DNA of 64,000 nucleotides from Candidatus Krumholzibacteriota bacterium (GCA_034520215.1 JAXHNR010000002.1:78060-142059); one strand, 5' to 3'; positions 68 to 17,761 are shown, numbered from the stretch's first letter. Notes: generated from the letters alone by a model not told the origin. Made by a program: numbers and translations.

Positions 68-528
68 CAGCTTTAGCCCCTTTTGCGTTAATCCTTATGC
101 TTATTTAAGTTGAGAGGTAAAATCTCTTGTTCCCGTCAAATAAAAGCTAACCATTTACTGTGTAAAACAAACCCTAAGAGATATCCCGTAAGCGAAGTAA
201 CCTCAAAGCGAAAAGAAATTACCAATTAACTGTCACATGAGATCTCTATGGAATCATTTTTATTAGCGGTAAATACTTCTATTCCAATCCTCTTGCATTC
301 AGACGAATCTAATCATTTCTACAATTATCTGAAGGAGAATCAAGAACGGTAATGAAACGACATTCAAATCTGTGTTTATACTACCCTAACATAACCCCCA
401 TGTCAAGTAAAATTGGAGCAATAATCTTCATAACAGCATTTTTCACCGCTTATTAATAACCTTACCCGGCCAGGAGCTCTTAATATTTAAATCAATCTAC
501 TTAATTGATCAGAAGATTCAAGTAATTC

Positions 529-1590
529 TTATCCTTCATTCTTCTGGACCTCAAGATATTTTCTAAAGGTTTCTTCCGCTTTTATCTTGAACCCTTTTTC
601 CTTATACGCGAGACTTAGAATCTGCCATCCTTTCGGATCTCCCGGCGCTATCTTTTGCGTATATTCTTCTCCAAACATTATAGCCTGATCAAACAACTTC
701 GCCTGATAGTATGTCAAAAGAAGACTATAAGCGGCCATTTTGTCTTTCGGCTTGACCCTGTGAGCACTTTCGTAAGCTACGATAGCCTTATGAAACTTTT
801 TCTGCTTGCGATAGACAAGGCCGAGATTATGGTAAACAGCGTAATTTTCCTCGCCGCTTCTTTCATACGCGTCAACGGCAATTTCATAAAACTTAGCCGC
901 TTTCGCCCATTCTCCTTTTGCGCGGAAATCCTCTCCGGTACCCTCGATACTTTTAACCTTGGTCGGATCCTCATCAATTAGAGCTTCGAAACTCTCGGCA
1001 GCCCTGTCTATATTGCCCCGATCAGCTTCAATCCTCCCGATAATGGAAAGCGCGTTCGTATAATCCTCATGTTCTTTATCCAGGCGCAGCCGCAACGAAT
1101 CAGTTGCTTCATAGCTTTTTTCCAGATAAACAGAATCCTCATCAGAAAGTGTAAAGGCAATCGTTACAAGCCTCAACCAACTCTTTAACCTTCTCGGATC
1201 AGCGTTAGTAGCTTTATCAAATTCTTTAACAGCGCCTTTCAAGTTGCCAAGCTGATACTCGCTTAATCCGTTATTATAATGCCCTGCCCAATTCGATTTT
1301 ATATTATCTTCCACAAGTTTTTTTTTGTTGGGATCAAGCTCCGCCGCTTTTGTAAAATTTTCATAGGCCAGTCTCATGCTGTCCTTCTTACTATAAGAAT
1401 ATCCCAGCTGATAATACGCTTCAGCGTCATTAGGGTTTTTCTCCAAGCCAAGTTTAGCGCTCTTTATAGCCTTGTCGTAACTTTGAGTCTGATTATGCAG
1501 CATAGCGCTTGTCGTCTCTACGCTCTTGCAGCCATATAGACCGCCAATCACAATAAGGACAGCGGCAACTAAAAATAATGACTTTCTCAT
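529..1590 (-). CDS. TPR-repeat lipoprotein (signal peptide + LYGC lipobox)
   Basis: N-term MRKSLFLVAAVLIVIGGLYGC; repeated AxxYxxLGxxY TPR-like motifs through the protein. Confidence 0.6.
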   Translation of the reverse strand: MRKSLFLVAAVLIVIGGLYGCKSVETTSAMLHNQTQSYDKAIKSAKLGLEKNPNDAEAYYQLGYSYSKKDSMRLAYENFTKAAELDPNKKKLVEDNIKSNWAGHYNNGLSEYQLGNLKGAVKEFDKATNADPRRLKSWLRLVTIAFTLSDEDSVYLEKSYEATDSLRLRLDKEHEDYTNALSIIGRIEADRGNIDRAAESFEALIDEDPTKVKSIEGTGEDFRAKGEWAKAAKFYEIAVDAYERSGEENYAVYHNLGLVYRKQKKFHKAIVAYESAHRVKPKDKMAAYSLLLTYYQAKLFDQAIMFGEEYTQKIAPGDPKGWQILSLAYKEKGFKIKAEETFRKYLEVQKNEG

Positions 1591-1833
1591 CGGAACTGAT
1601 CCTCCTTTTTAAACCATAGTAAAGCTGATTGAACCTCACACTTGACAAATAACAAGATCACAATCTTTTAAAATAAAGTTGCTTCTGTAAAAATTACTGC
1701 TTCAACAAATAAATCCAATTGTAAAATGAACATCTTAATATACTTGATTACCGTTAAATTAGTACTCCGCCGCTTTCCTGTCAAGTCTCTTTCCGGCTTC
1801 TTAAATCAATATTACAGGGTGTTAGATTTCCAT

Positions 1834-3876
1834 TTAGAAAAAAGTTACAGGGTCAACATCCCAACGAATCTCCGTCTTCTTGAAATTTGACACACCTTTT
1901 ACGGCCGTATCTATCAAGATTCTCTTCGACTTCGAATCAAAGGTACCCTTAATCAGAATATGGTACCTGTATTTGCCTCTTAACCTTGCAATCCGGGCGG
2001 GCGTCGGGCCGAGAAAAGAAAGTTCTCTTTCCAAATCAAGATCACTTAGCGTCTCATAGATTTTGTCTGAGGCGGTTCGCGCTCTATCTTCAGAAGTTGA
2101 CATTACAGTAAATAATAGCAGGTCTGTTTCAGGAGGATAATTCAGCTCCCTCCTCAAAGAAAGTTCAGTTTCCGCAAAACCGTCAAAATCATGATCTATT
2201 AGATAATTGAAAAGATAATGCTCGGGAGCGTAAGTCTGAACCAGGACTCCCCCCCCCTTCTCTCCCCTTCCAGTCCTGCCCGCCGCCTGAGAAAGTAACT
2301 GAAATGTTCTTTCGGCCGCCATAAAATCCGGGAAATTAAGTCCGGAGTCAGCCGACAGAATCCCCACGGTTGTAACATTCGGATAATGGTGTCCCTTCGC
2401 GACCATTTGAGTGCCCAGAAGCAAGTCGGCATCTCCCCTGGCAAATCTTTCCAGTATTTCGCTGTGACCATCCCGTTTGGATGTCGTGTCAAAATCCATT
2501 CTGGCAATCCTCAATCCCGGCATAATATTTGATAATTCCACCTCCACTCGCTGAGTACCGACACCGGCATGAGATATCTTATATGACCCGCAAGCCGGAC
2601 ATTTCTCCGGATAATCATCTCTATATCCGCAATAATGACAGATCAAACCAGCCCCGCGCGTGTGATATGTCAGTGAAATAGAACAATTAGGGCAGGTGTC
2701 TATCCACCCGCATTTTCGACATTGAACAAAATTCGCGTGTCCGCGCCTGTTAAGCAACAGAATAGACTGTTCTCCGGCCGCGTGACTTTTCGCGATAAGA
2801 TCAAGCAGTTTATCTGAAAAAACCTGCCTGCTCCCGCGCATATCGACTATTTCTACAGGCGGCATCTCGCCCCCCGTCGGCCTGGTCCGCAGCTGGAAAT
2901 AGTAATCTCCGGAATTCTTGAATTGAAAGTATCTTGGAAGAGACGGGGTAGCTGAACCCATCAGCAAAACCGCGTTTTCATTTCGAGCCCTGTAGAACGC
3001 GACGTCAACAGCGTTGTAGTGGGGCTTTTCCTGCTGTTTATAAGATGCGTCCTGCTCCTCGTCAACTACAAATATTCCAAGGTCTTTCATAGGAACAAAG
3101 ACGGCTGACCTGGGGCCTATCACAATATCAAGCTCCCCCGTGGAAGCCTTTTTCCATATCGCGTATCTTTGAGCGCCCGTCAGCCTGCTGTGCAGTACAG
3201 CCACTCTATCTCCGAAGCGTCTTTTAAACCGTACTGTAATCTGAGGGATCAAAGCGATTTCCGGTATTAACAGTATTGCTCTTTTTCCGTAATTAAACGC
3301 CTCCTCAATACACCGCATATACACCTCTGTTTTGCCGCTTCCCGTAACCCCATGCAGCATAACACTCAGATGCTTCCCCTCTTTCATCCCTTCTGTTACA
3401 ACCTCAAAGGCTTTTTCCTGTTCATCATTAAGTTTTGGAGAGTTTATTTCCCGGGGGAAACTTCTTTGTGAAATTTCTTCCGGGCTGAACCGCTGTTTAC
3501 CTGTAATCCCCGCGGGAAGCATTACTTTTAGAATTTCACCTATCGGATGAAGATAATAATCAGCCATCCACCCCGCTAAATCAAGCAACTCTTCATTTAT
3601 CAAAGGAGTTTTGTCAACGAGGGCTGAAAGCTCCCGTATTCTGAAATTTCCCCGGGGTTTACCGCAGAATGAAAGAATATAGCCCGTCAGCCCCCTTCTT
3701 CCAAACTTCACCTTAACCCTGCAGCCGGGATTGACCAATTCCGCCATTTCCGGCGGAACTCTGTAAGTAAAAACCCTTTTTACGGGAACCGGCAAAACAA
3801 CGTTGACATATTTTTTTTTAAGATCTTCAGCTTCCATAGCAGACAGGAGTATATTATGAAAGCTGCCGCGGAGCAA
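1834..3876 (-). CDS. priA: Primosomal protein N' (replication restart helicase PriA)
   Basis: Walker A GVTGSGKTEVY, DEEQD box, Cys-rich zinc motif CPNCSISLTYH...CHYCG, C-terminal PriA domain. True start may be the internal MEAED (3837). Confidence 0.85.
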   Translation of the reverse strand: MLRGSFHNILLSAMEAEDLKKKYVNVVLPVPVKRVFTYRVPPEMAELVNPGCRVKVKFGRRGLTGYILSFCGKPRGNFRIRELSALVDKTPLINEELLDLAGWMADYYLHPIGEILKVMLPAGITGKQRFSPEEISQRSFPREINSPKLNDEQEKAFEVVTEGMKEGKHLSVMLHGVTGSGKTEVYMRCIEEAFNYGKRAILLIPEIALIPQITVRFKRRFGDRVAVLHSRLTGAQRYAIWKKASTGELDIVIGPRSAVFVPMKDLGIFVVDEEQDASYKQQEKPHYNAVDVAFYRARNENAVLLMGSATPSLPRYFQFKNSGDYYFQLRTRPTGGEMPPVEIVDMRGSRQVFSDKLLDLIAKSHAAGEQSILLLNRRGHANFVQCRKCGWIDTCPNCSISLTYHTRGAGLICHYCGYRDDYPEKCPACGSYKISHAGVGTQRVEVELSNIMPGLRIARMDFDTTSKRDGHSEILERFARGDADLLLGTQMVAKGHHYPNVTTVGILSADSGLNFPDFMAAERTFQLLSQAAGRTGRGEKGGGVLVQTYAPEHYLFNYLIDHDFDGFAETELSLRRELNYPPETDLLLFTVMSTSEDRARTASDKIYETLSDLDLERELSFLGPTPARIARLRGKYRYHILIKGTFDSKSKRILIDTAVKGVSNFKKTEIRWDVDPVTFF

Positions 3877-3885
3877 TCCTAAATA

Positions 3886-4263
3886 TTATTTTCTGGTGTA
3901 AAGGTATTCATTCACTTTTTCTATAAGCTTGCTCGGACTGAAGGGTTTTACAATATAATCTGTAGCTCCAACTTCATAACCGAGCCTCTTATCTATTTCT
4001 CTACCCTTTGCTGTCAGTAAAATAACAGGGATTTTCTTTGTCAACGGATCAGATTTGAGAGCGCGGCATGCCTCATACCCGTCAACTTTGGGCATCATTA
4101 TATCAAGTATTATCAAATTAGGCTGTTCTTTCCGAGCTTTCTCTATAGCTTCTTCTCCATTAGAGGCGGATACCACCTCATATCCTTCCGCCTCAATACT
4201 GAATTCCAGTATCTGAGTAATATTTGCTTCATCATCAACCACAAGAACTTTTCTTTCAGTCAT
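3886..4263 (-). CDS. Single-domain response regulator (REC/CheY-like)
   Basis: VLVVDDE...DIMMPKVDG...LTAKG receiver motifs; 4-bp overlap with downstream HK (operon). Confidence 0.8.
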   Translation of the reverse strand: MTERKVLVVDDEANITQILEFSIEAEGYEVVSASNGEEAIEKARKEQPNLIILDIMMPKVDGYEACRALKSDPLTKKIPVILLTAKGREIDKRLGYEVGATDYIVKPFSPSKLIEKVNEYLYTRK

Positions 4264-7200
4264 ACTTCCTCCTCCACTTTTTCTGTTTCTTCATTAATGT
4301 TATCGATTTTCCTGCTGAATTCAGGTGAATAAAAGTAGTCTTCCAGGTCTTCAATTTCTTCAAATCCTCTTAATTCATCCAGCACTTCCAGGAAAGCATT
4401 TACTATCTCGGGGTCGAATTTCTTCCCGGCGTTGGCGGAAATCTCCTCAGCCGCTTCATCCAGAGAATAGCCGCGTCTGTAGGGGCCGTGAGTAACAAGG
4501 GCCCTGAAAGAATCTATTACAGTTATTATTCTTGTTCCCATATCAGCTTCAGTAGATTTGATACCATCAGGATATCCCGTTCCGTCATAACTTTCATGAT
4601 GATTACGTACCATCTTCATTACTCTCTCGTCAAGCGCCATAGGGGAAAGAAGCAAATAACCGATATCGGTATGTTTCTTCAGTTTTTCCCACTCTTCTGC
4701 CGAGAGACTCTCCCTTTTACCCCTTATATATCCCTCTATTTTCATCATCCCGACATCATAGAGATTCATCCCGAGATAAAGAGCCGCCAGGCTGCTTTCT
4801 TCTATATTAAGGCGCTTTCCCGTCTGGACGGCCAGCCTGGAATACAAAGACAGGTTTTTGCTTCCAATACTTTCTCTGAAATTGAGAATACTCCTCATCG
4901 CCTCTTTTAAATCGGCAAAGTTTGTGGAAATAACTTCATACGCTTCAAGTTTGCTCAGCATCGCGCTTATTATCCCGCTCAATACCTCCAAAACCTCTTT
5001 TTCAGGACCGGAAAACCTTCTTCCCTCAACATGGTCGCTTACATTGAGTACTCCCGTCACTTTCCCGTTTTCCTTTAATGGAACTGAAATAAAGGAATTT
5101 GTGCCGTAATAAGCAGAATTATTAGAACGTTTATAATTGGCGTTCTCTTCTATATTTCTGATATATATAGCCCTTCCCTCCTGAAAAACACGCCCCGCTA
5201 TTCTTTCACCAACCTTAACCTTAGTATTCTGAACAAATTCAGGATCCATTCCCTTAGCCGCGACAACCCTGAGGACGTTTTCATCTTTATCCAGCTTCAT
5301 AATTGAGGCCTTTCTCGCCTGCAGAAAACCGGCCATCATCTCCACAAGAAGGGATAAGAATTTTTCCCTCTGATGTCCCGTCGTTCCAAAAACCTCTGAG
5401 CTATTGCGTCTACGAATTATTATATCATCCCGCACGGGAAGCAATACAATAAATTTAGCTCCCGCGCGCTTTAAGTTTTCAACCCAAATCCGTCCCTCAT
5501 GCCATTTAACAATATCTTTGCATATAGCAAGACCCAATCCGGATCCGCCGTATTCTCTGGTATTGCTGTTATCAACCTGGTAGAATCTTTCAAAGACCTT
5601 TTCCAGCTGCTGTTCCGGGATTCCCTTCCCCGTATCCTGAACTACTATTCTGACCGCGGAAGCTTCCTCGTCGAGGGAGATTGATATTTCTCCCTTATCC
5701 GGGGTAAATTTCAAGGCGTTTTTCATAAGATTATCAATCAGTTGATATATCATTTCCCTGTCAGCCTTCATTACAACATGCGATTTCGGTAAATGAAGAT
5801 TGCAGTTAATTCCAGCGGAAGATATTTCGTCTTCAAGATTATTATAAACGTCCTGGATAATATTATTAATATCGCACTTTCCTTTTTTGCGCTTCAGCTG
5901 TCCGCTTTCCATCGTTGAATAATCAAGAATATTATCGACAAGATCAATTACCCTGTTATTCTCCTCTGTCATCACGCTCAGAAAATCCTTTATTGTATCT
6001 CTCTTTATGGAAACGATATTTTCAATAATAGTTTCGGCGTATGCCTTTATCGAAGTAAGAGGAGTCCTGAGTTCATGTGATACTATCGACATGAAATTAG
6101 TTTTTAATTGATTGGCGTTTTCAAGTTCATCTTTACACTTTGACAGTTCGGCTTCTTTCCTGTAACAGTTTTCCTTGAGTGTTTCTTCGCGAATCAATTG
6201 AGCGGCCAGCCCTGAGCATAAACTTAGAAAAATCTGATCGGCATTGACTGTCTCGTCGAAAAAACCTATTATAAACGATCCCGCATTACTGGTTCCCTCC
6301 ACTATCGGATATATGAAGATGTTATCTTTCTTCCACGTAATCGATCCGGGAACAAAGACGCTGCTGTCACCCCCGAGGATGCCGCGGTTGAATTTATATC
6401 CGCCTCCCTCTTTAAATCTATCATCGAAATATTCAGTATATTTATCTTTAGGATGGGAAATGCCGGTCTCCGGCGGGACAGCCTCTCCGGCGCATCCTCT
6501 TAGATAAAAATGATCATCTTTGTATTTCTGAGTTCTTAATAACACAAAATCCGCTCCGGATTCTTCATAAACCGATTCGGCAATCTCCTGGTAGTTTTCG
6601 GAATCTTTCGGGTTCAGCAGGGTTTTTTCCCGCAGCCTGAGAAATTTTTCATACACCCGGTTTTCAACAACTTTCTCCCGGCGTACCATTGAACTGCCGG
6701 CTGAAGAGACGGCAAGAATCGCGAGCCCGCCTATATCAGAAAGAAAAATAAATTGTCTGCCCAACATTCCTTTTGGGATTAATCCCGCGAGAGATAAACC
6801 TTCAACTAACGCGGCCATACAGAACATAGCCGCTACAGTACTCCACAAAGCAGCGTTTGAAGAATCCTCTTTCTTTAATTCCTTTAGAAGCGCCGCCCAG
6901 AAACCAAGTGACGCGAAGGCCCAGGTTAGCAATATAAGATTTGAAAAGGAAAAGCCGATCCATGACAACGAGAAACTGAGAACCGCCAAAAACACACCGC
7001 CGACCAACCCGGCTGAAAGAATATTTTTGTTCCACCCGATTCTGAATTTTCCCTCGGCGGGCTTAAGGAAAGATGCCAATAAAATATAGAGTCCCGCCTG
7101 CCCGGCGGCAAAAGAAGCAATCGGCAGAAAAGATCCGCTTCCCAAAAGGGGACTAATAAATATCCATCTCGAAAAGAAGATAAAAACAAGGCCGGACAAG

Positions 7201-7337
7201 ACCTTCCAGCTCTTCGATTTATTCCCCGCGTCAAAACCCACCGCCACTGCCGTTACAGACATAAGCAGAAAAACAGCAAGGTATGTTACCGATCCCGAAT
7301 ACCCCGTGAATATTTCTTCTATTCCTGCTCCAAGCAA
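4260..7337 (-). CDS. Membrane sensor histidine kinase fused to GAF and C-terminal HD-GYP-like domain (HK-GAF-HD-GYP hybrid)
   Basis: ~6 N-terminal TM helices; H-box SHELRTPLTSI; HATPase_c (DTGKGIP, GGSGLGLAI); second GAF; HD-GYP core HHESYDGTGYP and downstream DSFRAL...YRRGY. The HD dyad reads YD (LYDVGMM). Confidence 0.75.
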   Translation of the reverse strand: MLGAGIEEIFTGYSGSVTYLAVFLLMSVTAVAVGFDAGNKSKSWKVLSGLVFIFFSRWIFISPLLGSGSFLPIASFAAGQAGLYILLASFLKPAEGKFRIGWNKNILSAGLVGGVFLAVLSFSLSWIGFSFSNLILLTWAFASLGFWAALLKELKKEDSSNAALWSTVAAMFCMAALVEGLSLAGLIPKGMLGRQFIFLSDIGGLAILAVSSAGSSMVRREKVVENRVYEKFLRLREKTLLNPKDSENYQEIAESVYEESGADFVLLRTQKYKDDHFYLRGCAGEAVPPETGISHPKDKYTEYFDDRFKEGGGYKFNRGILGGDSSVFVPGSITWKKDNIFIYPIVEGTSNAGSFIIGFFDETVNADQIFLSLCSGLAAQLIREETLKENCYRKEAELSKCKDELENANQLKTNFMSIVSHELRTPLTSIKAYAETIIENIVSIKRDTIKDFLSVMTEENNRVIDLVDNILDYSTMESGQLKRKKGKCDINNIIQDVYNNLEDEISSAGINCNLHLPKSHVVMKADREMIYQLIDNLMKNALKFTPDKGEISISLDEEASAVRIVVQDTGKGIPEQQLEKVFERFYQVDNSNTREYGGSGLGLAICKDIVKWHEGRIWVENLKRAGAKFIVLLPVRDDIIIRRRNSSEVFGTTGHQREKFLSLLVEMMAGFLQARKASIMKLDKDENVLRVVAAKGMDPEFVQNTKVKVGERIAGRVFQEGRAIYIRNIEENANYKRSNNSAYYGTNSFISVPLKENGKVTGVLNVSDHVEGRRFSGPEKEVLEVLSGIISAMLSKLEAYEVISTNFADLKEAMRSILNFRESIGSKNLSLYSRLAVQTGKRLNIEESSLAALYLGMNLYDVGMMKIEGYIRGKRESLSAEEWEKLKKHTDIGYLLLSPMALDERVMKMVRNHHESYDGTGYPDGIKSTEADMGTRIITVIDSFRALVTHGPYRRGYSLDEAAEEISANAGKKFDPEIVNAFLEVLDELRGFEEIEDLEDYFYSPEFSRKIDNINEETEKVEEEV

Positions 7338-7350
7338 AACTTCTCCCGGC

Positions 7351-10335
7351 TCAATGAAGAATTCTATTACTTAATTTGGCTTTCATTCTGTCAGTTATAT
7401 TCAAATACTCTTCTACTTCCATATGTCCTTCATCCATCAGAACATCTATAAACGCGCTGACAATTGCCGCGTCAAACTGAGTGCCCGCATTTTTTACCAA
7501 CTCCTCGACAGCTTCTACCACTGTCATCTCATCCCTGTAAGGCTTTTTGCTTACCATAGCGACAAACGCGTCAATAACAGCTAATATCCTTGAGCCTATC
7601 GGTATCTGATCCCCCTTAAGACCCATCGGATAACCTTTGCCGTCAAAATGTTCATGATGAAAGAGAACAATCTTACTTACTTTTTCCACAAATTCAAAGG
7701 GTCTGAGCAGGTCAGTTCCCCTTTGGGGATGACTTCTTATCTTGTTTATATCTTTTGACGAAAGAGATAATGTTTTATTAAGGATGTCTTCACTGACACA
7801 TGACATGCCGATATCATGCACGCTGGAGACAAATTGAATTACTCTAATCTCTTTTCTTTCCAGATCGAGCTTCTTGGCAATTTTAACGGTCCAATTAACG
7901 GATTCTTTCCTTAAACCTGATTTATCCCTCTCAAATATTTCCAGCAAAGAGCGCAGCGAATGTATCGTCTCTTTAAGAAAAGCGTTAAAGTCCTGTGACA
8001 TTCTCATTCTTTCTATGACTTTTGAAATTCTCATGCTTAGGCTTTTAAGTAAATCCAGGTCATCTTCATTAAAAGATTTGCCCGATAACTTATTATTCAC
8101 ATTTATTACACCCAGAATAGTCGAGCCGATCACAAGAGGAACACTTATAAGGGATTTTGTCTCGTATTGAGATTTTCTGTTTGAGTCGGTGATCCCGACT
8201 TCTTCAATATTTTCAATAAGCAGCGGTTTGCCGCTCTCAGCAACTTTACCGGCCACACTGCTGCCTACTTTTACTCTCGCGTTTCTGACTATCTCACTAT
8301 TCAGTCCGTAAGCATCTTTGATGAACAATTCTTTTCTTTCCTCATCGAGAATCATAATGGATACTATCTTCGCCGAAAGAACCTCAGCTACTACACGGAC
8401 TGAAAGTTCGAACATTTCGTTTATTTCATTTCTGGAATCTGTCGCGTCTATAAGGAAACCAAGTAGATTATTAAAGTTATGCTCCTTGGGAAGAGTAAAA
8501 ATAAATTCTGTTCCTTCGCCGACTTCGCTCGTTACTTTTATATACCCGCCGTGCTGCTCGACAATATTCTTTACTATTGCGAGGCCAAGCCCAACACCTT
8601 CGTTAAACCCGGTATGAGCTTGATAGAATCGTTTAAAAACATTTTTTAACTTATCTTTAGATATCCCTTTTCCTTCATCTCTGACGGTAACCTTTATTGA
8701 TACGGCGTCTTCTGCGGCTTCAATATATATTTTTCCTTTCGCGGGCGAGAACTTTATGGCATTCCCTATCAGATTTATAAACACCTGCTTTATCAAGTCT
8801 TCATCGCCGTCAACCCAAGGAATTTCGTCTGAAATATTCACAATCAGCCCGAGATCTTTATCCTTAAAATACGGCTGCATGGAAGATTCCACATTCTGAA
8901 TCAATTCCTTTAAATGGAAAACTTTTCTCTTCAGAGCCTTCCGCCCGAATTTTATCTTGGAAACATCAAGAACTTTATTAACCATACGGATGAGTCTTTC
9001 CGTCTCATTCGAAATAACACCCAGAAATTCTTCGCGTTCTTTGAAATCAGAATCAGCGGCGTGCTCTATCAGAGATTCAACATAGGCTTTGATAGACGTC
9101 AAAGGAGTCTTAAGCTCGTGGGAAAGATGTGAAATATATCCCATCTTCAATTTATTAGAGCTCTCGAGGTTTTCATTTTCCGTTTCAAGTTTATCTATCC
9201 GTCTGTTCATAACTTCGTGTAATTTGCTTTTCTCAATAGCTCCGGCAACCTGACCGCTTAGAATTGTAAGAAGCTTCAAGTCTTCTTCCGTAAAGGCTTC
9301 CTCGGTTACATCACCAACCATTATTATCGCCAGGCTGATATCATTTGAAATAACAGGTATAGCCAGTAGAGATTTGAGTTTATTCCCCTTAAGCAGTTTT
9401 GACGCTGAACCTGAAGGATGATCTTTAATACTGTTAATCACAAGACCTTCCTTCAACTTAACTACTTCTTTAATTAAAGGATCCTCTTTCATTTCAGGGG
9501 TTTGTTTTACGCTTCTGGCATCTTTTACGTCGAGTTCAATATATTTGAATACTTCATGTTTTTCAGTAAATAAAACAGCTCCGGCCCACGGCCTTCTCAG
9601 GAGAAGTGTTGTTTCCTTGCAAACCATTTTCATCAATGTTTCAAGGCTTATCACCGAATTTATTCCCAAGCTTATATCATATAACCTCGTTAATTCGAGT
9701 ATTCTCTTCCTGGATTGCTCTATTTTCTTTTCAACGTTCCGGAAATAGACTCTGAATTTCTCATGATACGTGTTGAAAAGAAAAATCATAAGCCCCATGA
9801 ATCCGGCTAGAGCCAGCAAAGTGCCGATTAGAAAGTGTTCGTTCATAATTGAAGAATAATCGCCCTGATAACAGGAAAAATGAGGAATTGAACCGCTTAT
9901 TTCAAGAAGGCTGAGCGCTCCTATAACAGTAACTGTTACTAATGTAAGAATGATCCCCGTGGAGATGGAAGGGATAAGTCTGCTGGAAAAGAACAACGGC
10001 AGAATTACTAAAAACAAAAACGGACTCCACGCAGAACCGGTCAGATATACGAGAGAGAGTACAGTCGCCAGATCCACCACTATTGCCAGCCAATTTAGAA
10101 GATTGATCCCTTTTTCACTTTCTTCTAAAATGAAACCTTCAAGCCCGGCAACAATAAAATTAAGTAAAGCGGCCCCCATAAACAAAAACACGACAAGATC
10201 TGTTCTGTAAGTAAACCCCGCTAATTCTCTGGCAAGGTATACTATGCAGAAAATCGCCACCAGCTCTATCATTCTGATGTTTATCGCGTTCGTCAGTTCC
10301 CGTAATTTGTTTTTTCTTGCAATTTCCTCAAACAT
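7351..10335 (-). CDS. Paralogous membrane sensor histidine kinase with GAF and C-terminal HD-GYP domain
   Basis: Same architecture as 4260..7337: TM N-term, GAF, H-box SHELKTPLTSI, HATPase_c (DEGKGIS, GVGLGLAI), GAF, HD-GYP with intact VHDIGM and HHEHFDGKGYP. The ORF track starts at 10425 but that overlaps the upstream gene by 83 bp; internal ATGs at 10335 (MFEEIARK) or 10359 are more likely starts. Confidence 0.7.
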   Translation of the reverse strand: MFEEIARKNKLRELTNAINIRMIELVAIFCIVYLARELAGFTYRTDLVVFLFMGAALLNFIVAGLEGFILEESEKGINLLNWLAIVVDLATVLSLVYLTGSAWSPFLFLVILPLFFSSRLIPSISTGIILTLVTVTVIGALSLLEISGSIPHFSCYQGDYSSIMNEHFLIGTLLALAGFMGLMIFLFNTYHEKFRVYFRNVEKKIEQSRKRILELTRLYDISLGINSVISLETLMKMVCKETTLLLRRPWAGAVLFTEKHEVFKYIELDVKDARSVKQTPEMKEDPLIKEVVKLKEGLVINSIKDHPSGSASKLLKGNKLKSLLAIPVISNDISLAIIMVGDVTEEAFTEEDLKLLTILSGQVAGAIEKSKLHEVMNRRIDKLETENENLESSNKLKMGYISHLSHELKTPLTSIKAYVESLIEHAADSDFKEREEFLGVISNETERLIRMVNKVLDVSKIKFGRKALKRKVFHLKELIQNVESSMQPYFKDKDLGLIVNISDEIPWVDGDEDLIKQVFINLIGNAIKFSPAKGKIYIEAAEDAVSIKVTVRDEGKGISKDKLKNVFKRFYQAHTGFNEGVGLGLAIVKNIVEQHGGYIKVTSEVGEGTEFIFTLPKEHNFNNLLGFLIDATDSRNEINEMFELSVRVVAEVLSAKIVSIMILDEERKELFIKDAYGLNSEIVRNARVKVGSSVAGKVAESGKPLLIENIEEVGITDSNRKSQYETKSLISVPLVIGSTILGVINVNNKLSGKSFNEDDLDLLKSLSMRISKVIERMRMSQDFNAFLKETIHSLRSLLEIFERDKSGLRKESVNWTVKIAKKLDLERKEIRVIQFVSSVHDIGMSCVSEDILNKTLSLSSKDINKIRSHPQRGTDLLRPFEFVEKVSKIVLFHHEHFDGKGYPMGLKGDQIPIGSRILAVIDAFVAMVSKKPYRDEMTVVEAVEELVKNAGTQFDAAIVSAFIDVLMDEGHMEVEEYLNITDRMKAKLSNRILH

Positions 10336-10342
10336 ATCTCTA

Positions 10343-11164
10343 TCACACCGTTTTTTCATGTGCCGGAGTATCCGAAACCAGCACCGGCACAGAGACGACC
10401 ACAGTTGTGCCAACTCCCGGAACACTTTGCAGATCTATTTTGCCGTTGATAAACGAAACGGCATCCGCCGCCATGGAAAGCCCCAAACCCAACCCGCATT
10501 TACTATCTGATGGGTCAACACGAAAGAAGGGAAGAAAAACCTTCTCTTTCATGTCTTGAGGAATTCCCGCGCCGTAATCATAAACATTTATTATAAGAAG
10601 TTTTTCATTTTGATCCGTTTTGTCATCACCGGAAAGTCCGGCCGTTACTCCCGGAGGCGTAGAACTTCCTCCGAATTTTTCAGCATTTGAAAAGAGATTG
10701 CCCAGCGCGACCTCAAGATATTTTTTTCTCAATTTTACCGGGGGAATATTCTTGTCTACTTCATTTACAATTTTCCCGGGATTCTCACAATACTTGCCGA
10801 GTACCTGATCCACCAAATCGCTGAATCTGACTTTCTTCATCTCACCAATTAGCTGCCCGGATTGTTTAATGCTGAGCATTCGAATGTACATCTCGACTAG
10901 AGACTCCAGACCATTTACGGCTTCCTCTGTTTTACGAAAATATCTTTTTTCCTTACTTCCCATTTTCGGAAAACTCGATTCGAGAAGCCCCAGATACCCT
11001 TTTATCGAAGTCAGAGGCCTGACAAATTCACTGCCTACCACCGAAAGAGCGGAATTGAATCTAACTTTGTAATTATCTATCTTTTTTTGAAGAGTTTTCA
11101 GCTTTTCCTCTAACTCCGGTGAAGTTGAAGATTGGGGCATCTCTTCTTTATTTATAATTGTCAT
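10343..11164 (-). CDS. Soluble sensor-less histidine kinase (coiled-coil + HisKA-like + HATPase_c)
   Basis: No TM or sensor domain; phospho-acceptor region FVRPLTSIKGYLGLL; ATP-lid YDYGAGIP...CGLGLGLS. Confidence 0.6.
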   Translation of the reverse strand: MTIINKEEMPQSSTSPELEEKLKTLQKKIDNYKVRFNSALSVVGSEFVRPLTSIKGYLGLLESSFPKMGSKEKRYFRKTEEAVNGLESLVEMYIRMLSIKQSGQLIGEMKKVRFSDLVDQVLGKYCENPGKIVNEVDKNIPPVKLRKKYLEVALGNLFSNAEKFGGSSTPPGVTAGLSGDDKTDQNEKLLIINVYDYGAGIPQDMKEKVFLPFFRVDPSDSKCGLGLGLSMAADAVSFINGKIDLQSVPGVGTTVVVSVPVLVSDTPAHEKTV

Positions 11165-11239
11165 TGAGCGCTTCCATTTCTGACATTAATTTCACGTGAA
11201 TACCTATAATCGATAACCTCCGGAGACAGTAAATATAGA

Positions 11240-12214
11240 TCACCTTTCTATCTCACTTTTTCCGGCATTGCTCTTACGCCTCTCTCTTACTAAGACGCTT
11301 CCGTCCATATTCTTGCCGAATTTCTTAAGTTCAGATGTTATATCACTTACGTGCGCGTAGTGTTTCAAACGTCCATTATTATTCGCTACAAACGCGATTG
11401 TCAGAGACATAAGGGGCACTTTGCTTATTTCTCCCGTCCTGTCCCGTATTTCCAGATACCCCTTGGCGATATCCTCTTCATCCATAAGCACGGAAATTTT
11501 ATTGCCAAACTCGTCAATGATGCGTCTCGCGATAATCTCAGCCCTGCTTACTGATGTAATTACCACAAAATCGTCCCCCCCTATATGACCGATAAAATCC
11601 TTTTTGTTTCCCGCTGAATAAACCGATTCGTTTATGATATCAGCAAGTAAGAGAATCGTTTCATCCCCTCTCTGGTAACCGTAATAGTCGTTGTATGCCT
11701 TGAAGTTATCAATATCCACATACAAGAAGGCGAAGGCCTCCGATTTTCCTATTAAACTCTCTAATTTCTGCCTGATGACCTTATTGCCCGAAAACCCCGT
11801 AAGCGGATTCGCGTCTTTTTGCTTTTGCCCCCAGTCAAGAACATTATTCACTCTGAGCAGGAGTTCGTCATTTGAGTAAGGTTTTATCAGGTAATCATTC
11901 GCTCCATTTTTAAGTCCCTGAATCTTATCGGGCATCTCGCTTTTAGCAGTCAGCATTATCACGGGAATCTGACTGGTTCTGATTTCTTCTTTCAGCTTCG
12001 CGCACACTTCAAATCCGTCCATTAAAGGCATCATAAGGTCAAGAATAATAAGATCGGGTATTCTTCCGCGTGCCTCGCGCAAAGCCTTTCTGCCGTTTTC
12101 CGCGCATATGACTCTGTATCCGTTTCTTTCAAGCTGAAACTTTAGAATCCTGCGTATATGTTCTTCATCATCTACTACTAATATTTCAGGCGTTTTTCTA
12201 TCTGTATATTCCAT
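11240..12214 (-). CDS. Response regulator with GGDEF-family output domain (GGDDF variant)
   Basis: REC: VVDDEEHIRR...DLMMPLMDG...LTAKS; GGDEF domain: NPLTGF...IGHIGGDDFVV (GG[DE]EF fourth position is D). Confidence 0.75.
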   Translation of the reverse strand: MEYTDRKTPEILVVDDEEHIRRILKFQLERNGYRVICAENGRKALREARGRIPDLIILDLMMPLMDGFEVCAKLKEEIRTSQIPVIMLTAKSEMPDKIQGLKNGANDYLIKPYSNDELLLRVNNVLDWGQKQKDANPLTGFSGNKVIRQKLESLIGKSEAFAFLYVDIDNFKAYNDYYGYQRGDETILLLADIINESVYSAGNKKDFIGHIGGDDFVVITSVSRAEIIARRIIDEFGNKISVLMDEEDIAKGYLEIRDRTGEISKVPLMSLTIAFVANNNGRLKHYAHVSDITSELKKFGKNMDGSVLVRERRKSNAGKSEIER

Positions 12215-12501
12215 CGAGTCTCCGCAAGTTGTTGTTCATTGACGCGTTACAGCCTTTAAAATCAAACTGAGTAAGACAAAAGATAAGCCAATTCAACTAT
12301 TGGATTTCCGCAATTTACATGCCAAGTCTATTCAAAAAGACGGAGGGCAGCGCAGCTCGAGGAACCAGGGTGTAATCATAACCATGACAGACCGTTACAT
12401 ATATATATATTTATTGTTAAAAGGCTTAATTCAGTGATCACCACAGTGCTTTTTGCACATGGATTTCCGATTTTGAAAATGGAATATTACTAAGAAGCGG
12501 A

Positions 12502-13512
12502 TCAGCTCCAGGATTTGAGCATTCCGCGTGAGAATGTGTTGAGATCTATATTGTCTGTTATCCCCGATTTAATCTTGTACATACCGGCGCATGCTATCAT
12601 CGCGGCATTATCCGTACAGTATTTAACATGGGGCCAAAATACATCAACCCCCATAGCTCCAAGCCTTTCGGCGGCCAGTTCTCTAAGCCGCCCGTTTGCC
12701 GCCACCCCGCCCGCGAGATAGAGTCTGCTGACATTTTTTCTGCCTGCCGCGATAACAGCTTTCAGAACAAGCACATCGGCTATAGCCTCCTGTGCCGAAG
12801 CCGCCACATCACTTACTATAGAAGGGGATAACTTCCCCAGTGATTCTATCTTGAGTCTCACGGCTGTTTTTAAACCGGAGAAAGAATAGTCACATTCACC
12901 TGAATTTTTAAGTCCTCTCGGGAAATCGAACAATTCCGGATCGCCCTCCAGGGCGGCCTTTTCAACCGCCGGCCCTCCGGGATAGGGCAATCCCAGAAGT
13001 TTTCCGATTTTATCAAACGCTTCCCCCGCGGCGTCATCCCTGGTCCCGCCCAAAAACTCATATACCCCTATTTTCTTTACGTATATAAGCTGTGTATGCC
13101 CCCCGGAAACCACCATCGCCAGAGATGGAGTTATGAAATTATCTTCCAGATCATTTGCCAGAATATGCCCTTCAAGGTGATGCACGCCGATCAGCGGAAC
13201 ACCGCTTCCATAAGAAAGCCCCTTCGCGAAAGAGAGCCCCACGAGGAGAGAACCTGTAAGCCCGGGTCCGTTTGTCACACATATTCCCGACAGATCGTCA
13301 AGATCAACTCCCCCGGTTTCCATCACACTCTCATAGAGGGGCAAAAGAGTCTTCATGTGCGACCTGGAAGCGATTTCAGGAACAACGCCTCCGTATTTTT
13401 CGTGAGCAAGCTGAGCCGCGGTCTTGTGAACAACAACCCCTCCGCGGTCGGAATAAAGGGCGCATGCTGTGTCATCGCAGGAAGTTTCTATCCCGAGGTA
13501 CAATTTCTCCAT
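12502..13512 (-). CDS. tsaD: tRNA N6-adenosine threonylcarbamoyltransferase TsaD (Kae1/YgjD family)
   Basis: LGIETSCDDTA N-term, HHLEGH metal-binding motif, length 336 aa. Confidence 0.85.
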   Translation of the reverse strand: MEKLYLGIETSCDDTACALYSDRGGVVVHKTAAQLAHEKYGGVVPEIASRSHMKTLLPLYESVMETGGVDLDDLSGICVTNGPGLTGSLLVGLSFAKGLSYGSGVPLIGVHHLEGHILANDLEDNFITPSLAMVVSGGHTQLIYVKKIGVYEFLGGTRDDAAGEAFDKIGKLLGLPYPGGPAVEKAALEGDPELFDFPRGLKNSGECDYSFSGLKTAVRLKIESLGKLSPSIVSDVAASAQEAIADVLVLKAVIAAGRKNVSRLYLAGGVAANGRLRELAAERLGAMGVDVFWPHVKYCTDNAAMIACAGMYKIKSGITDNIDLNTFSRGMLKSWS

Positions 13513-13527
13513 CTCTTAGCCCCTTCT

Positions 13528-14121
13528 CTATAACATTCTCCAAGGAGTCAGGTTCATGTATATGACGCGCGGAGCCCTGCGTTTATCCACAAGTGTTACA
13601 GAAGCGTTAGCTATTGTAATTCTGTGCATCATATCAAGATCCATCTTAAGGAAAGTTGTAATGACCGGTTTTATAATATCACTGTGAGATACTATCGCTG
13701 CCCTTCCTTCCTCTTTTAACGAAAGGTCATCTATAAACTCGACGGCGCGTTTGGTGATTCCCTCGATATCTTCATGTTCGGAGAAAGCAGAGCGCGTGGG
13801 CTTTTCAGTATACAGCTTAAAATCCGGGTCATCCTTAAGGTCTTTGTAAGTTTTGCCCACCCAATTCTCGAAGGAAGATTCGTCCAGTCTTGGATCTTCC
13901 CGTATATTAACCCTCAGCACATCAGATAATATATCGGCTGTTTGCCTGGTTCTCTTTAGAGTGCCGGAATATATTATTTCGATTCCTTCATCTGAAAGAA
14001 ATTCGGCGGTTCTTCGCGCCTCTTCCCCGCCGGTTTTATTTACGGGGACTTTGAGCCTGCCCATAACTCTTTTTTCCCTATTCCAGTCTGTCTGCCCGTG
14101 TCTTATAAAGTAAAGAAGCAT
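13528..14121 (-). CDS. Histidine phosphatase family protein (phosphoglycerate mutase-like / ribazole-phosphatase-like)
   Basis: LYFIRHGQTDWN (RHG catalytic motif), ~200 aa. Confidence 0.7.
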   Translation of the reverse strand: MLLYFIRHGQTDWNREKRVMGRLKVPVNKTGGEEARRTAEFLSDEGIEIIYSGTLKRTRQTADILSDVLRVNIREDPRLDESSFENWVGKTYKDLKDDPDFKLYTEKPTRSAFSEHEDIEGITKRAVEFIDDLSLKEEGRAAIVSHSDIIKPVITTFLKMDLDMMHRITIANASVTLVDKRRAPRVIYMNLTPWRML

Positions 14122-14240
14122 TACAGCAAACTCTCCTCAATAACTGTTTTAAGTATATTTATTGACATACCCGCGACTGAAATTGCCTGCGCTGAATCCT
14201 GTTCTTACTTTTACTCGATTCAGTCCCGGCTCTATCTCGC

Positions 14241-15335
14241 TTAAAATATATGTTCATATCCTGATTGTCCTATCTCTCTTTCCCGCCCCTTTCGATCTCT
14301 CAAAAAGACCTTTCTGTCACCGTCAGTTATTTTTCCTACCGGGAAAATTCCTTCCGCCTTAAAACTCCCGCCGGCGCCTCTGAGCGTGGCGATTTGACAA
14401 TATTCTTCCCCGCTGCTTAAGGCCAGAGAAATGATTAAATTCCTGCTGATTTCGGGTAAATTCAACAGCACACGGGGCACGGGCATATATTCCTCATCGA
14501 TTAAAGCTCCAACACCGCTCTCCGAGCACAAAGCGGCAAGATCTTTCCCGACTCCGTCACTGACATCTATCATAGATGTGATCTCTATCCCTTTAGCTTC
14601 AATCCCCGGTATATCCAGGGGGCGGGCCGGGGGAACAAGATATTGTCTGATTAAACCCAATCCTCCGGATACAACAGAAGGAATGCCCCTGTTGCCGCAG
14701 AACCGTTTTATCTCTTCAGGTCCGGCGGAGAGATCCATTTCAGAGACAAAATCTCTCAGAATCTTTCTTATTTTACGGTCTGAAGGAAGGATCGCGCCAG
14801 CAAGGTCATCCCCCTTATGAATCTCAAAAAGATCTTTTACAAGCCTCATACCCGAAAGAGAACCCCCGCACTCCCCTGTCATCACTATCAGATCGCCGGG
14901 GGCGGCGCCTTTCCTTCTTACCGCCTTTCCCGCGGGAACTTCTCCCGTGATGGCAATATTAAAAAAGCCTCCGCCCGGGCTGTATACCGTGTCGCCTCCA
15001 GCGAGCTCTATACCGTAATAATCACACCCCAGCTTCAACCCCTTTACAATTTCATCCAGTTCTTCCTGCTTGCACCCCTTGGTCAAACCGGCTGTTACAA
15101 GAATAGCCCTTGCCTTTGCTCCCATCGCGAATATATCGGAAACATTCGAAGAAATCACTTTTTGTACTGCCTGAGACAAAGTCGAAAAAGAAAGATCGTA
15201 ATGCACACCCTCTACGACGGCATCGGCGGCGAGAACTATTTCCCCCCTGCCGGAGGCCAGCAAAGCCGCGTCATCTCCGATCTGAGCTTCCGGAAAACCC
15301 CTTTTGAGTGTCTCTATAACAGTGCTCTCTTTCAT
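14241..15335 (-). CDS. thiL: Thiamine-monophosphate kinase-like PurM-superfamily protein
   Basis: N-term ...IGDDAALL...LAADAVVEGVHY matches ThiL signature (IGDDCALL...TD.LVEGVHF in E. coli); longer than typical ThiL (364 aa). Confidence 0.55.
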   Translation of the reverse strand: MKESTVIETLKRGFPEAQIGDDAALLASGRGEIVLAADAVVEGVHYDLSFSTLSQAVQKVISSNVSDIFAMGAKARAILVTAGLTKGCKQEELDEIVKGLKLGCDYYGIELAGGDTVYSPGGGFFNIAITGEVPAGKAVRRKGAAPGDLIVMTGECGGSLSGMRLVKDLFEIHKGDDLAGAILPSDRKIRKILRDFVSEMDLSAGPEEIKRFCGNRGIPSVVSGGLGLIRQYLVPPARPLDIPGIEAKGIEITSMIDVSDGVGKDLAALCSESGVGALIDEEYMPVPRVLLNLPEISRNLIISLALSSGEEYCQIATLRGAGGSFKAEGIFPVGKITDGDRKVFLRDRKGREREIGQSGYEHIF

Positions 15336-15443
15336 CTTTTCTCCATGAGAGATTTAAAAACGGGTAGTCGAGTTGTTAATAAAACCCCATATTCATATCT
15401 GTCCGGACGCGGCGCAAAAACCGCGGGCTTTTCTCAAATGTAA

Positions 15444-17024
15444 TCACGGGCTGCAGCCGGCAACATTTTCAATTTCTTTTACCGCGCGCGGAACCGCTCT
15501 CAAACAATCACCCGCTATCATCGAACGCTCTCCATAATCAAAGGCCGCTATATCTGCCGCCCGGGAGTGAATATATACACCCAGCCTCGAAGCCGACTCT
15601 CCGCTGCAGCTCTGAGCAAGCAATCCTCCGATTGTTCCGGTTAAAACATCTCCGCTTCCCGCGGTTGCCTGCCCCGGGTGCCCCGGAACATTCACGTATA
15701 CATTGCCGTCCGGCAACGCCACGAGAGTAGGAGAACCTTTGTGGACAAGCGTAATCCTGCTTCCTTCTATCAAAGAAGATATTGCTTTTATTCTCTCTTC
15801 GGGGGTTTCCGGAACTTTTTTCCCTGTAAGCCTTCTCAGCTCTCCCGAATGGGGAGTCAAAACAATTTCTTTATCCCTTGATAAATTCAAAAGTGTTTCA
15901 TAATCCCCTTCGAAAGAATTGATGGCATCGGCATCTAAAAGAACAGGGGCTCTGCAGCGGGAAACAAAATCTTTAATAAATCCCGCGGTTTCTTCATCCG
16001 TTGTAAGGCCCGGCCCGATAGCGGCAGCGTCATACCTGATCTTTCCGTTCAATACTCCGAGAGCGTCCTTTGAAATAGAACCATCCTGTGTTTCAGGCAG
16101 AGACACAAAGATTATCTCCGGCGCAGCCGATTGGACTGAACCTCGAATCGATTCGGGGCCGGCCATGTATACTATTCCGCATCCCGTCTTCAGCGCGCTC
16201 AGGGCGCTCAGCTGCGCGGCCCCGGAGTATCTCCTGCTTCCCGCTACAACGAGAAGAGAGCCGCACTCGAATTTATGAGCTTCAGGGGAACGAAGAGGAA
16301 AATCAGCCGAGGCCAGCAAAGCGTCAAGCATATGAACCTTCAGCCCGCTTTCTTCAATTACATTTTCAGGCACTCCTATATCTACAACTTCAAGATCTCC
16401 GGTATTACTCTTCCCCGGATTAAACAGCGCAGCGAACTTAGGCAGAGCCATTGTAGCTGTTAAATCAGCTTTTACCGCCGCTCCCATAATTTCAGCCGTT
16501 GTTCCGTTAACTCCGGAGGGAATATCCACGGAAAGAACCGGCAGCGGAGAGTTGTTTATAAGCTCTATTAGTTCTAAATATTTGTCCCTTACCGGACTGT
16601 TTATTCCAGTTCCCAGAAGGGCGTCTATGACGAGATCGCTCTTTTCAAGCTCCTTCGCCGCTAATCCTTCCCATCCGGGCCTGTAAAGTAATATTTCCTT
16701 TATTCTTTTCTTTTCTCTCAGAGTTTCAAGCCGTGAATAATTAGCGGAGGCGTCGGGGGAAAATTCTTCCGCTCTGTGAAGATAATATAACACTACTTCC
16801 GCGCCCGTTTCGGCAAGCAGCCTGGCAACGACAAGACCGTCGCCGGCGTTATTCCCCTTTCCGAGGAAAATCGACACATGAAGATTTTCCGGCACTTCAT
16901 AATACCCGGTGATCAATTCAAATATTCCCCGGCCGGCTCTTTCCATAAGCGTCAATCCCTTAACGCCGCCTCTGATAGTGGCCTGGTCGATTTTTTTCAT
17001 TTGGCCGGCAGTTACGACACGCAT
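15444..17024 (-). CDS. nnr: Bifunctional NAD(P)H-hydrate repair enzyme Nnr (YjeF-N epimerase + ADP-dependent dehydratase)
   Basis: YjeF_N motif GKGNNAGDG; C-terminal carbohydrate-kinase-like dehydratase domain (GPG..., GDVLTG). Start set to the internal MRVVTAGQ (track start 17054). Confidence 0.8.
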   Translation of the reverse strand: MRVVTAGQMKKIDQATIRGGVKGLTLMERAGRGIFELITGYYEVPENLHVSIFLGKGNNAGDGLVVARLLAETGAEVVLYYLHRAEEFSPDASANYSRLETLREKKRIKEILLYRPGWEGLAAKELEKSDLVIDALLGTGINSPVRDKYLELIELINNSPLPVLSVDIPSGVNGTTAEIMGAAVKADLTATMALPKFAALFNPGKSNTGDLEVVDIGVPENVIEESGLKVHMLDALLASADFPLRSPEAHKFECGSLLVVAGSRRYSGAAQLSALSALKTGCGIVYMAGPESIRGSVQSAAPEIIFVSLPETQDGSISKDALGVLNGKIRYDAAAIGPGLTTDEETAGFIKDFVSRCRAPVLLDADAINSFEGDYETLLNLSRDKEIVLTPHSGELRRLTGKKVPETPEERIKAISSLIEGSRITLVHKGSPTLVALPDGNVYVNVPGHPGQATAGSGDVLTGTIGGLLAQSCSGESASRLGVYIHSRAADIAAFDYGERSMIAGDCLRAVPRAVKEIENVAGCSP

Positions 17025-17025
17025 T

Positions 17026-17739: not shown

Positions 17740-17761
17740 TATCCCAATATATTCTAATACT

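Follow-up and report, generated by a model that had tools for sequence, protein, structure and literature searches.

A predicted operon of Candidatus Krumholzibacteriota encodes two histidine kinases fused to non-canonical HD-GYP domains

We analyzed a 64,000-nucleotide (nt) stretch of DNA from a Candidatus Krumholzibacteriota bacterium (GCA_034520215.1 JAXHNR010000002.1:78060-142059), referred to here as the window, which carries a five-gene signaling cassette. The genes encode a REC-GGDEF-type response regulator (RG, 324 amino acids (aa), WspR/DgcR-like), a small soluble DHp-CA protein without a sensor domain (sHK, 273 aa), two membrane histidine kinases in tandem (HK1, 994 aa from an ATG start; HK2, 1025 aa from a TTG start), and a stand-alone receiver (REC, 125 aa). 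Listing of the open reading frames (ORFs) and translation confirmed the five minus-strand genes of a preliminary description of this DNA (Table 1). The gene order in the window is tsaD (12502-13512), RG, sHK, HK1, HK2, REC, and priA (1834-3876), with the priA start located 9 nt past REC. Both membrane kinases end in an HD-GYP domain with a non-canonical active site, and these domains are the main subject of our analysis.

The longest ORF for HK1 begins with a GTG at 10425 and encodes 1024 aa. We rejected this form, as it overlaps the 3' end of sHK by 83 nt and is longer than the orthologs. An ATG at 10335, 7 nt past the sHK stop codon, yields a 994-aa protein, and because the orthologs measure 994–997 aa, HK1 was placed from this ATG; the 5' extension at 10336-10425 is probably not translated. 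HK1 and HK2 are indeed paralogs, as previously described (33% identity over 687 aa, E = 6e-106 by BLASTP), with the proposed length of ~1025 aa applying to HK2 and not to HK1. The junctions measure 75 nt for RG/sHK, 7 nt for sHK/HK1, and 13 nt for HK1/HK2, and HK2 and REC share a 4-bp ATGA overlap. The 4-bp junction reported earlier is therefore correct, and the reported 8-bp junction is a gap of 7 nt. The location of all five genes on one strand, the tight junctions, and a gene order that recurs in all related genomes examined agree with the prediction of a single operon.

Pfam searches assign two GAF domains, HisKA (1.2e-15), HATPase_c (5.5e-30), HD_5 (7.6e-34), and HD (9.7e-11) to HK1, and HisKA (1.2e-15), HATPase_c (2.4e-31), a single GAF domain (5e-14), and HD_5 (9e-26) to HK2. 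Hydropathy indicates ~6 transmembrane (TM) helices in HK1 and ~7 in HK2, joined by short loops. No significant Pfam family was matched by these membrane domains (6TM_PilS, E = 2.7; UPF0014, E = 0.63). The order of membrane domain, GAF, HisKA/HATPase_c, second GAF, and HD-GYP that had been proposed for both proteins is complete in HK1; in HK2, all elements are present except the N-terminal GAF domain, which has no Pfam match and is suggested only by a weak profile–profile match in hhalign (probability 60%, E = 9e-5). The C-terminal halves of HK1 and HK2 align end to end with PmGH, the GAF-HD-GYP protein of Persephonella marina (PDB 4MCW), with E = 6e-31 and 6.8e-31, respectively.

The H-boxes of both large kinases retain the phosphorylatable His, as the preliminary description implied: it lies within SHEL[KR]TPLTSI as His406 in HK1 and His421 in HK2 and is invariant in 113 orthologs. 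ExxT/N is the phosphatase motif of histidine kinases, and both proteins have an intact ExxT. Together, these features make kinase and phosphatase action probable. The N-terminal regions are less constant. Two HK2 orthologs (L006, 12004-14505, 833 aa; L010, 11008-13533, 841 aa) are ~190 aa shorter and, judged by length, appear to be missing part of this region. The two related kinases from Candidatus Eisenbacteria have no N-terminal TM bundle, with no TM helix over the first 120 residues of one and at most a single helix in the other. Hence, the conserved core can do without the membrane domain.

We compared the HD-GYP active sites with that of PmGH, the best-studied enzyme of the family. Alanine substitution of H189, H221, D222, H250, H276, H277, K225, or D183 abolishes PmGH activity, and substitution of E185 or D305 reduces it; the proposed nucleophile is a hydroxide bridging the M–H metal pair, and a crystal form with the G-site iron alone still bound cyclic di-GMP (c-di-GMP) (PMC4159591). 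The equivalents of H250, HHExxDGxGYP, and D305 are intact in both HK1 and HK2. The GYP signature is accordingly present in each C-terminal domain, and these domains clearly belong to the HD-GYP fold family rather than being generic HD domains. HDxGK, the consensus motif of this family (PMC3749722), is found in neither. The H189 position is occupied by W815 in HK1, and HK2 has no His in that segment; both kinases have Met in place of K225, and HK2 in addition has Tyr in place of H221. In total, HK1 is missing two individually essential PmGH residues plus the D183/E185 pair, and HK2 is missing three.

These substitutions extend across the orthologs. In an alignment of 113 HK1 orthologs, the HD dyad and the Met at the K225 position are each found in 113/113, the H189 position is Trp in 92 and His in only 5, and the E185 and D183 positions are variable. 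By contrast, HHE, DGxGYP, H869, and D922 are invariant, the equivalents of PmGH H250 and D305 are invariant or nearly so, and RxY[K/R] is kept, reading KPYR/RPFR. HK2 carries YD instead of HD in all nine genomes compared, distant Latescibacterota included. Its orthologs have Met or Leu at the K225 position throughout and a variable D183 position, and all nine have HHExxDGxGYP, one with a DG-to-SG variant. In distant HK2 orthologs (L007, L008, L009), the site where canonical HD-GYPs have RxxK reads RPYQ, an RxxQ-type motif; the window HK2 has GPYR.

The preliminary description had viewed the C-terminal domains as phosphodiesterase (PDE)-type and the locus as capable of c-di-GMP degradation. The fold assignment stands, but degradation is doubtful, because the kinases lack residues whose alanine variants inactivated PmGH. 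The features of a competent PDE fail at H189 and K225 in both proteins and also at H221 in HK2, and we therefore did not file these domains as phosphodiesterases. As far as the residue patterns indicate, the modules most likely do not hydrolyze c-di-GMP efficiently.

To place these domains in a wider context, we searched 1.84 billion cluster representatives (50% identity clusters) exhaustively with HMMER and analyzed the best 150 matches. The order DHp/CA, (GAF), HD-GYP is found in 78 of these 150. Among the 78 kinase-fused representatives, 29 carry HDxGM, 31 carry YDxG[LMI], and a single one carries HDxGK. Fifteen of the best 150 are HD-GYP matches without a kinase; the motif was found in 12 of them and reads HDxGK in 10. 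Kinase fusion and loss of the Lys thus go closely together. The fusion of a histidine kinase to HD-GYP had been called unusual, and we found no description of it in the literature searched. In the running text of their HD-GYP census, as distinct from its architecture Table 3, Galperin & Chou list fusions with REC, GAF, PAS, DUF3391, MASE, and periplasmic sensors and do not mention a kinase. The architecture is nevertheless not rare in metagenomes, with at least 78 clusters at 50% identity.

Table 1. Genes, domains, and active-site features of the cassette, in positions of the window
Feature	Position	Strand	Basis
RG gene	11240-12214	minus	ORF listing and translation
sHK gene	10343-11164	minus	ORF listing and translation
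HK1 gene	7351-10335	minus	start placed by ortholog length
HK2 gene	4260-7337	minus	ORF listing and translation
REC gene	3886-4263	minus	ORF listing and translation
Leader between tsaD and RG, 287 nt, presumed operon promoter region	12215-12501	minus	sole long non-coding gap in cassette
RG REC domain	11849-12184	minus	Pfam; phospho-acceptor Asp59 at 12038-12040
RG GGDEF-fold domain	11366-11806	minus	Pfam and AlphaFold2 model
RG A-site GGDDF, aa 212-216, replacing GG[D/E]EF	11567-11581	minus	44-ortholog alignment
RG I-site position, NKKD, not RxxD	11597-11608	minus	sequence
HK1 TM region	9751-10335	minus	hydropathy
HK1 N-terminal GAF	9232-9648	minus	Pfam, E = 7e-11
HK1 HisKA and HATPase_c	8482-9135	minus	Pfam; His406 at 9118-9120
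HK1 second GAF	8011-8424	minus	Pfam
HK1 HD-GYP, non-canonical	7411-7953	minus	Pfam
HK1 Trp815, PmGH H189 position	7891-7893	minus	alignment to PmGH
HK1 HD dyad H840-D841 (PmGH H221-D222), kept	7813-7818	minus	alignment to PmGH
HK1 Met844, PmGH K225 position	7804-7806	minus	alignment to PmGH
HK1 HHEHFDGKGYP, aa 893-903, intact	7627-7659	minus	family alignment
HK1 KPYR, RxY[K/R]-type motif	7534-7545	minus	family alignment
HK2 TM region	6693-7337	minus	hydropathy
HK2 weakly GAF-like region	6141-6554	minus	hhalign
HK2 HisKA and HATPase_c	5430-6104	minus	Pfam; His421 at 6075-6077
HK2 GAF	4956-5369	minus	Pfam
HK2 HD-GYP, degenerate	4404-4901	minus	Pfam
HK2 YDVGM (Tyr860-Asp861 ... Met864), replacing HDxGK	4746-4760	minus	alignment to PmGH
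HK2 HHESYDGTGYP, intact	4569-4601	minus	alignment
HK2 GPYR, replacing RxYK	4476-4487	minus	alignment

RG matches the Pfam families Response_reg (3.7e-31) and GGDEF (5.4e-15), the latter partially (profile positions 5–107 of 161). The end of the partial match coincides, by eye, with an insertion of ~24 aa after the A-site strand. An AlphaFold2 model (predicted local distance difference test score 75) has WspR (3bre), PleD, and DgcR as its best matches and a disordered C-terminal tail. The receiver set DD15-16, D59, T89, and K111 is complete and invariant. The REC and GGDEF folds described earlier are therefore both present, but the A-site motif is GGDDF. This motif is invariant in 44 orthologs and recurs in the cassettes of Eisenbacteria and L014, a contig with a related cassette. 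D167/D169 (a DxD motif, reading DID), K172, N175, and D184 are likewise invariant in the 44 orthologs, and N175 and D184 align with the guanine-binding N335 and D344 of PleD. The c-di-GMP synthesis attributed to the locus would rest on this GGDDF variant, for which a single active precedent has been reported, the Hypr cyclic GMP-AMP (cGAMP) synthase GSU1937 (PMC8835794). Given the activity of GSU1937, the RG cyclase may work. We rejected RG itself as a Hypr-type cGAMP synthase, since its specificity residue is Asp (equivalent to PleD D344) and not Ser. Scanning every ORF of 150 aa or longer in the window for motifs revealed no further GGDEF, EAL-motif, or HD-GYP protein.

The small protein sHK matches HATPase_c (1.7e-14), with HisKA below the cut-off. 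Its N, G1, F, and G2 boxes, which bind ATP, are intact. Its H-box reads GSEFVRPLTSI, and Ser45 (11030-11032) aligns on the phospho-His of WalK (4u7n). None of nine close orthologs has His at this position (Ser in two, Asn in seven), and the distant orthologs in L006-L010 read GHEL or GHEF with the His kept, so the loss is recent and clade-specific. All sHK orthologs carry Lys or Arg at the Thr/Asn position of the ExxT/N motif, which suggests that the ancestral sHK was already phosphatase-deficient. The preliminary description had counted three histidine kinases at the locus, one of them sensor-less. The protein is indeed without a sensor domain, but in this clade it is a pseudo-histidine kinase, and the count of three does not hold. 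Its NCBI label is "HAMP domain-containing sensor histidine kinase", yet it has no HAMP domain, sensor domain, or phosphorylatable His. In function, sHK may resemble pseudo-histidine kinases of the DivL type.

REC (Response_reg, 1e-31) has a complete receiver set of DD10-11, D54 (4102-4104), T84, and K106. With 65–98% identity across the phylum, it is the best-conserved gene of the cassette; relative to the most distant ortholog set, identity falls from 65% for REC to 46% for HK1, 34% for HK2, and 28% for sHK. In L014, each kinase has its own REC. The REC of the window shares 57% identity with the receiver that follows the HK2-type kinase and 33% with the other. This orthology to the HK2-side receiver supports HK2 and REC as a pair, and REC is likely the cognate partner of HK2.

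More than 100 clusters of HK1 orthologs, ~997 aa long and annotated as Krumholzibacteriota or Latescibacterota, share its architecture. A genome-contig scan with a single protein gave close relatives only, and the wider synteny was read from contigs encoding orthologs. Five of these (L005, L006, L008, L009, L010) show the order (glnE, P-II) tsaD-RG-sHK-HK1-HK2-REC-priA. A closed Latescibacterota genome (L007) has sHK-HK1-HK2-REC-priA with no adjacent RG. In Candidatus Eisenbacteria (L012), the order is tsaD-RG(GGDDF)-HK-HK-REC-priA, with HDVGM in both kinases and no sHK, and L014 has tsaD-RG-HK1-like(HDAGM)-REC-HK2-like(YDVGM)-REC-priA. The cassette is thus syntenic in Krumholzibacteriota, Latescibacterota, and Eisenbacteria. 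The placement between tsaD upstream and priA downstream is constant in the window, in these phyla, and in L014 (in L007, on the priA side). It gives the signaling operon a stable linkage to replication-restart and tRNA-modification genes.

Shorter soluble relatives of ~760 aa, with the order GAF-HisKA-GAF-HD-GYP and the motif YDLGL, are encoded at L013 7001-9283 and L011 8001-10277; both are singletons, and L013 has no HATPase_c match on record. Members of this short group are named Nitrospira sp. and Nitrospirae metagenome-assembled genomes, and the L013 gene adjoins the polysaccharide-export genes Poly_export, Wzz, GNVR, and CpsB. The database names of HK1 orthologs vary (P0021, P0053, P0063, and others), including "K+-sensing histidine kinase KdpD", "GAF domain-containing protein", "HD domain-containing phosphohydrolase", and "histidine kinase/HD-GYP ... 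phosphodiesterase class II". The bin of one ortholog is labeled "Bacteroidales bacterium", probably through a binning or labeling error.

We also examined the noncoding and flanking sequence. An Rfam search at E <= 1 across 3500-13000 returned no c-di-GMP riboswitch or structured RNA and only a chance CrcZ fragment. A structured upstream RNA was rejected, as the fold of the 287-nt leader is not more stable than those of shuffled sequences (z = -0.47). Promoter and terminator scans gave counts no higher than in shuffled sequence and did not define transcript ends. Several antisense ORFs of 80–140 aa within the kinase genes, for example, at 4488-4910 on the plus strand, are unsupported. Across positions 1-20000 of the window, all 1-kb bins have negative GC skew (-0.07 to -0.24) and the long ORFs are nearly all on the minus strand, consistent with a long block of co-oriented genes.

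From the genes, domains, residue patterns, conservation, and synteny observed here, we infer the phosphotransfer partners, the cyclase activity, the non-hydrolytic binding, and the feedback of the following model. Our preferred reading, which we hold with somewhat less than even confidence, is that the operon forms a two-component/c-di-GMP circuit complete in itself, in which the kinase-fused HD-GYP domain serves as a non-hydrolytic c-di-GMP-sensing or cyclase-binding module with feedback. HK1 and HK2 would be membrane-embedded HisKA kinases that sense a signal, act as bifunctional kinase/phosphatases, and phosphorylate the two receivers. The partner of HK2 would be REC, to which it is translationally coupled, and RG would be phosphorylated by HK1 and/or HK2, whereupon its GGDDF domain would make c-di-GMP. 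The C-terminal GAF-HD-GYP modules would bind c-di-GMP or the cyclase without efficient hydrolysis, and the DHp-CA core would receive the binding signal via the preceding helical/GAF linker, so that the messenger level could feed back on the kinase/phosphatase balance. With its ATP-binding CA domain kept and its His lost, sHK could play an accessory role, such as heterodimer partner or modulator, rather than that of a phosphodonor. Non-hydrolytic binding is proposed because H189, Lys225/Asp183, and Glu185 are lost (His221 also in HK2) while D222, H250, HH276/277, D305, and the GYP Tyr are kept; HK1 additionally keeps H221 and the guanine-binding RxY[K/R]. The preliminary description had placed both synthesis and degradation of c-di-GMP under phosphorelay control. 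For degradation, this view is weakened: the HD-GYP domains are fused to the kinases and not to receivers, and so phosphorelay control of HD-GYP is not implied by the architecture.

Several points weigh against this preferred reading. Kinases are not usually regulated by a sensor domain that lies C-terminal to the CA domain, and the pairing of kinases with receivers is inferred from gene order alone. The GGDDF cyclase may be inactive, in which case the locus would lack a local c-di-GMP source. The importance of K225 derives from a single enzyme, PmGH. Loss of H189 by itself is not decisive, because Xanthomonas RpfG has Phe at this position and Gly at the E185 position (PMC4159591), and a close Lysobacter homolog of that protein is reported to be an active PDE (PMC9758175). 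Finally, five or six metal ligands are strictly conserved, which points to a retained metal center and possibly catalysis; a pure receptor would not need them, and the receptor DvhD, discussed below, has lost them.

This conservation, which suggests a retained metal site, is the best argument for the main alternative, in which HK1, and perhaps HK2, would be a true kinase/phosphodiesterase with a binuclear metal center, as proposed for RpfG-type proteins. Such an enzyme would be a reciprocal switch between a state that phosphorylates the REC-GGDDF cyclase, raising c-di-GMP, and a state that hydrolyzes c-di-GMP. HK1 retains HD, H250, HHE, D305, GYP, and RxY[K/R], invariant or nearly so in its 113 orthologs, and an aromatic residue at the H189 position occurs in RpfG as well, with Lysobacter RpfG being an active PDE. 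We nonetheless judge this alternative unlikely. The Met for Lys225 in every HK1 ortholog and the Tyr for His221 in HK2 in all genomes compared fall at positions where PmGH variants (K225A and H221A) are inactive, and conservation is lacking at the D183 and E185 positions. Moreover, HDxGK is the rule in the non-fused relatives and almost absent from the kinase-fused domains, which points to a changed function.

A second alternative requires no nucleotide binding: the HD-GYP domain could be an adaptor that docks RG onto the kinases, keeping unphosphorylated RG inactive and positioning its REC domain for phosphotransfer. RpfG uses its GYP motif to bind GGDEF proteins at their DxD motif (PMC3749722), and RpfG of Lysobacter binds unphosphorylated WspR and inhibits it, an effect that does not depend on the PDE activity of RpfG (PMC9758175). 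In keeping with such a role, RG is WspR-like with an invariant DID, GYP is invariant in both kinases, and the kinases are accompanied by RG in Krumholzibacteriota, Eisenbacteria, and L014. However, in the Latescibacterota genome L007, sHK-HK1-HK2-REC is present with no RG next to it, and docking leaves the conserved metal ligands and RxY[K/R] of HK1 unexplained, making this explanation rather improbable in our view. We consider it very improbable that the domains are active hydrolases of another substrate or chemistry, such as 3'3'-cGAMP, pGpG, or another phosphoester, for example, a phospho-protein. The conserved G/M-site metal ligands would fit, as would the RPYQ of distant HK2 orthologs, given that RxxQ/RxxN variants shift HD-GYP specificity toward 3'3'-cGAMP according to the running text of Galperin & Chou, and GGDDF activity was first shown in a Hypr cGAMP synthase (PMC8835794). 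But RG has Asp rather than the Ser that marks Hypr enzymes, the motifs in the window (GPYR in HK2, KPYR/RPFR in HK1) are c-di-GMP-type or degenerate and not RxxQ, and any phosphodiester hydrolysis by the same mechanism would suffer from the missing K225, D183, and H-site ligands.

HD-GYP domains are usually taken for phosphodiesterases, and automatic naming follows suit for the proteins studied here, with [quoted passage not shown] at JGI and "HD domain-containing phosphohydrolase" at NCBI. That a large kinase-fused subfamily systematically lacks residues on which the best-studied enzyme depends suggests another role. If that role is c-di-GMP sensing or cyclase docking, it would be a new coupling of two-component phosphorylation to the level of a second messenger. 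Tentatively, and with considerable doubt, we suggest that the Lys-less kinase-fused HD-GYP domains (HDxGM, YDxG[LM]) could constitute a separate, widespread class of modules, serving as non-hydrolytic c-di-GMP receptors or for cyclase docking, that give histidine kinases second-messenger feedback and that, together with the GGDDF cyclase and REC, might make up an ancient core circuit at tsaD/priA in several uncultured phyla. Conservation of the cassette at a constant position in three candidate phyla suggests a central physiological role. Each domain family was already known individually; what is new is the kinase-linked HDxGM/YDxGL signatures, a GGDDF partner that is invariant, and the constant tsaD...priA site across phyla. 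The five-protein cassette is compact and suited to in vitro tests.

WspR, PleD, and RpfC/RpfG are well-known cases of two-component control over c-di-GMP turnover. RG shares with WspR, PleD, and DgcR the REC-linker-GGDEF fold, an intact phospho-acceptor, and the conserved metal- and guanine-binding residues, but differs in its GGDDF A-site and the lack of an RxxD I-site. Similarly, sHK shares with DivL, whose structure (4q20) is among its PDB matches, a DHp-CA fold without a phosphorylatable His; sHK has Ser/Asn where DivL has Tyr, its change is recent and confined to one sub-clade, and it is sensor-less.

For the HD-GYP modules, PmGH is the best solved-structure match to both kinase C-terminal halves, with the same GAF-HD-GYP order, and HK1 and HK2 share its D222, H250, H276/H277, D305, and GYP. 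PmGH is a soluble, stand-alone protein with trinuclear Fe, whereas the module in HK1 and HK2 follows a complete membrane histidine kinase and lacks H189, K225, D183, and E185 (and, in HK2, H221, which is Tyr). RpfG of Xanthomonas/Lysobacter, with its partner RpfC, also wires an HD-GYP domain to two-component signaling and has an aromatic residue at the H189 position (Phe; Trp in HK1), and its adaptor roles toward GGDEF proteins and WspR have a possible counterpart in a cassette that encodes a WspR-like RG. [quoted passage not shown] DvhD, a PAS-HD-GYP protein of Desulfovibrio vulgaris (PDB 9RBZ/9RC0), is a non-hydrolyzing c-di-GMP receptor; ligand binding shifts its stalk helices (PMC13090378). 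It has a significant sequence match to HK1 (E = 5e-18) and signals through N-terminal stalk helices. DvhD has lost HD (SQ) and HH (MN) and binds c-di-GMP metal-free, whereas HK1 and HK2 keep most metal ligands, and where the output of DvhD is control of a periplasmic protease, HK1 and HK2 carry a kinase.

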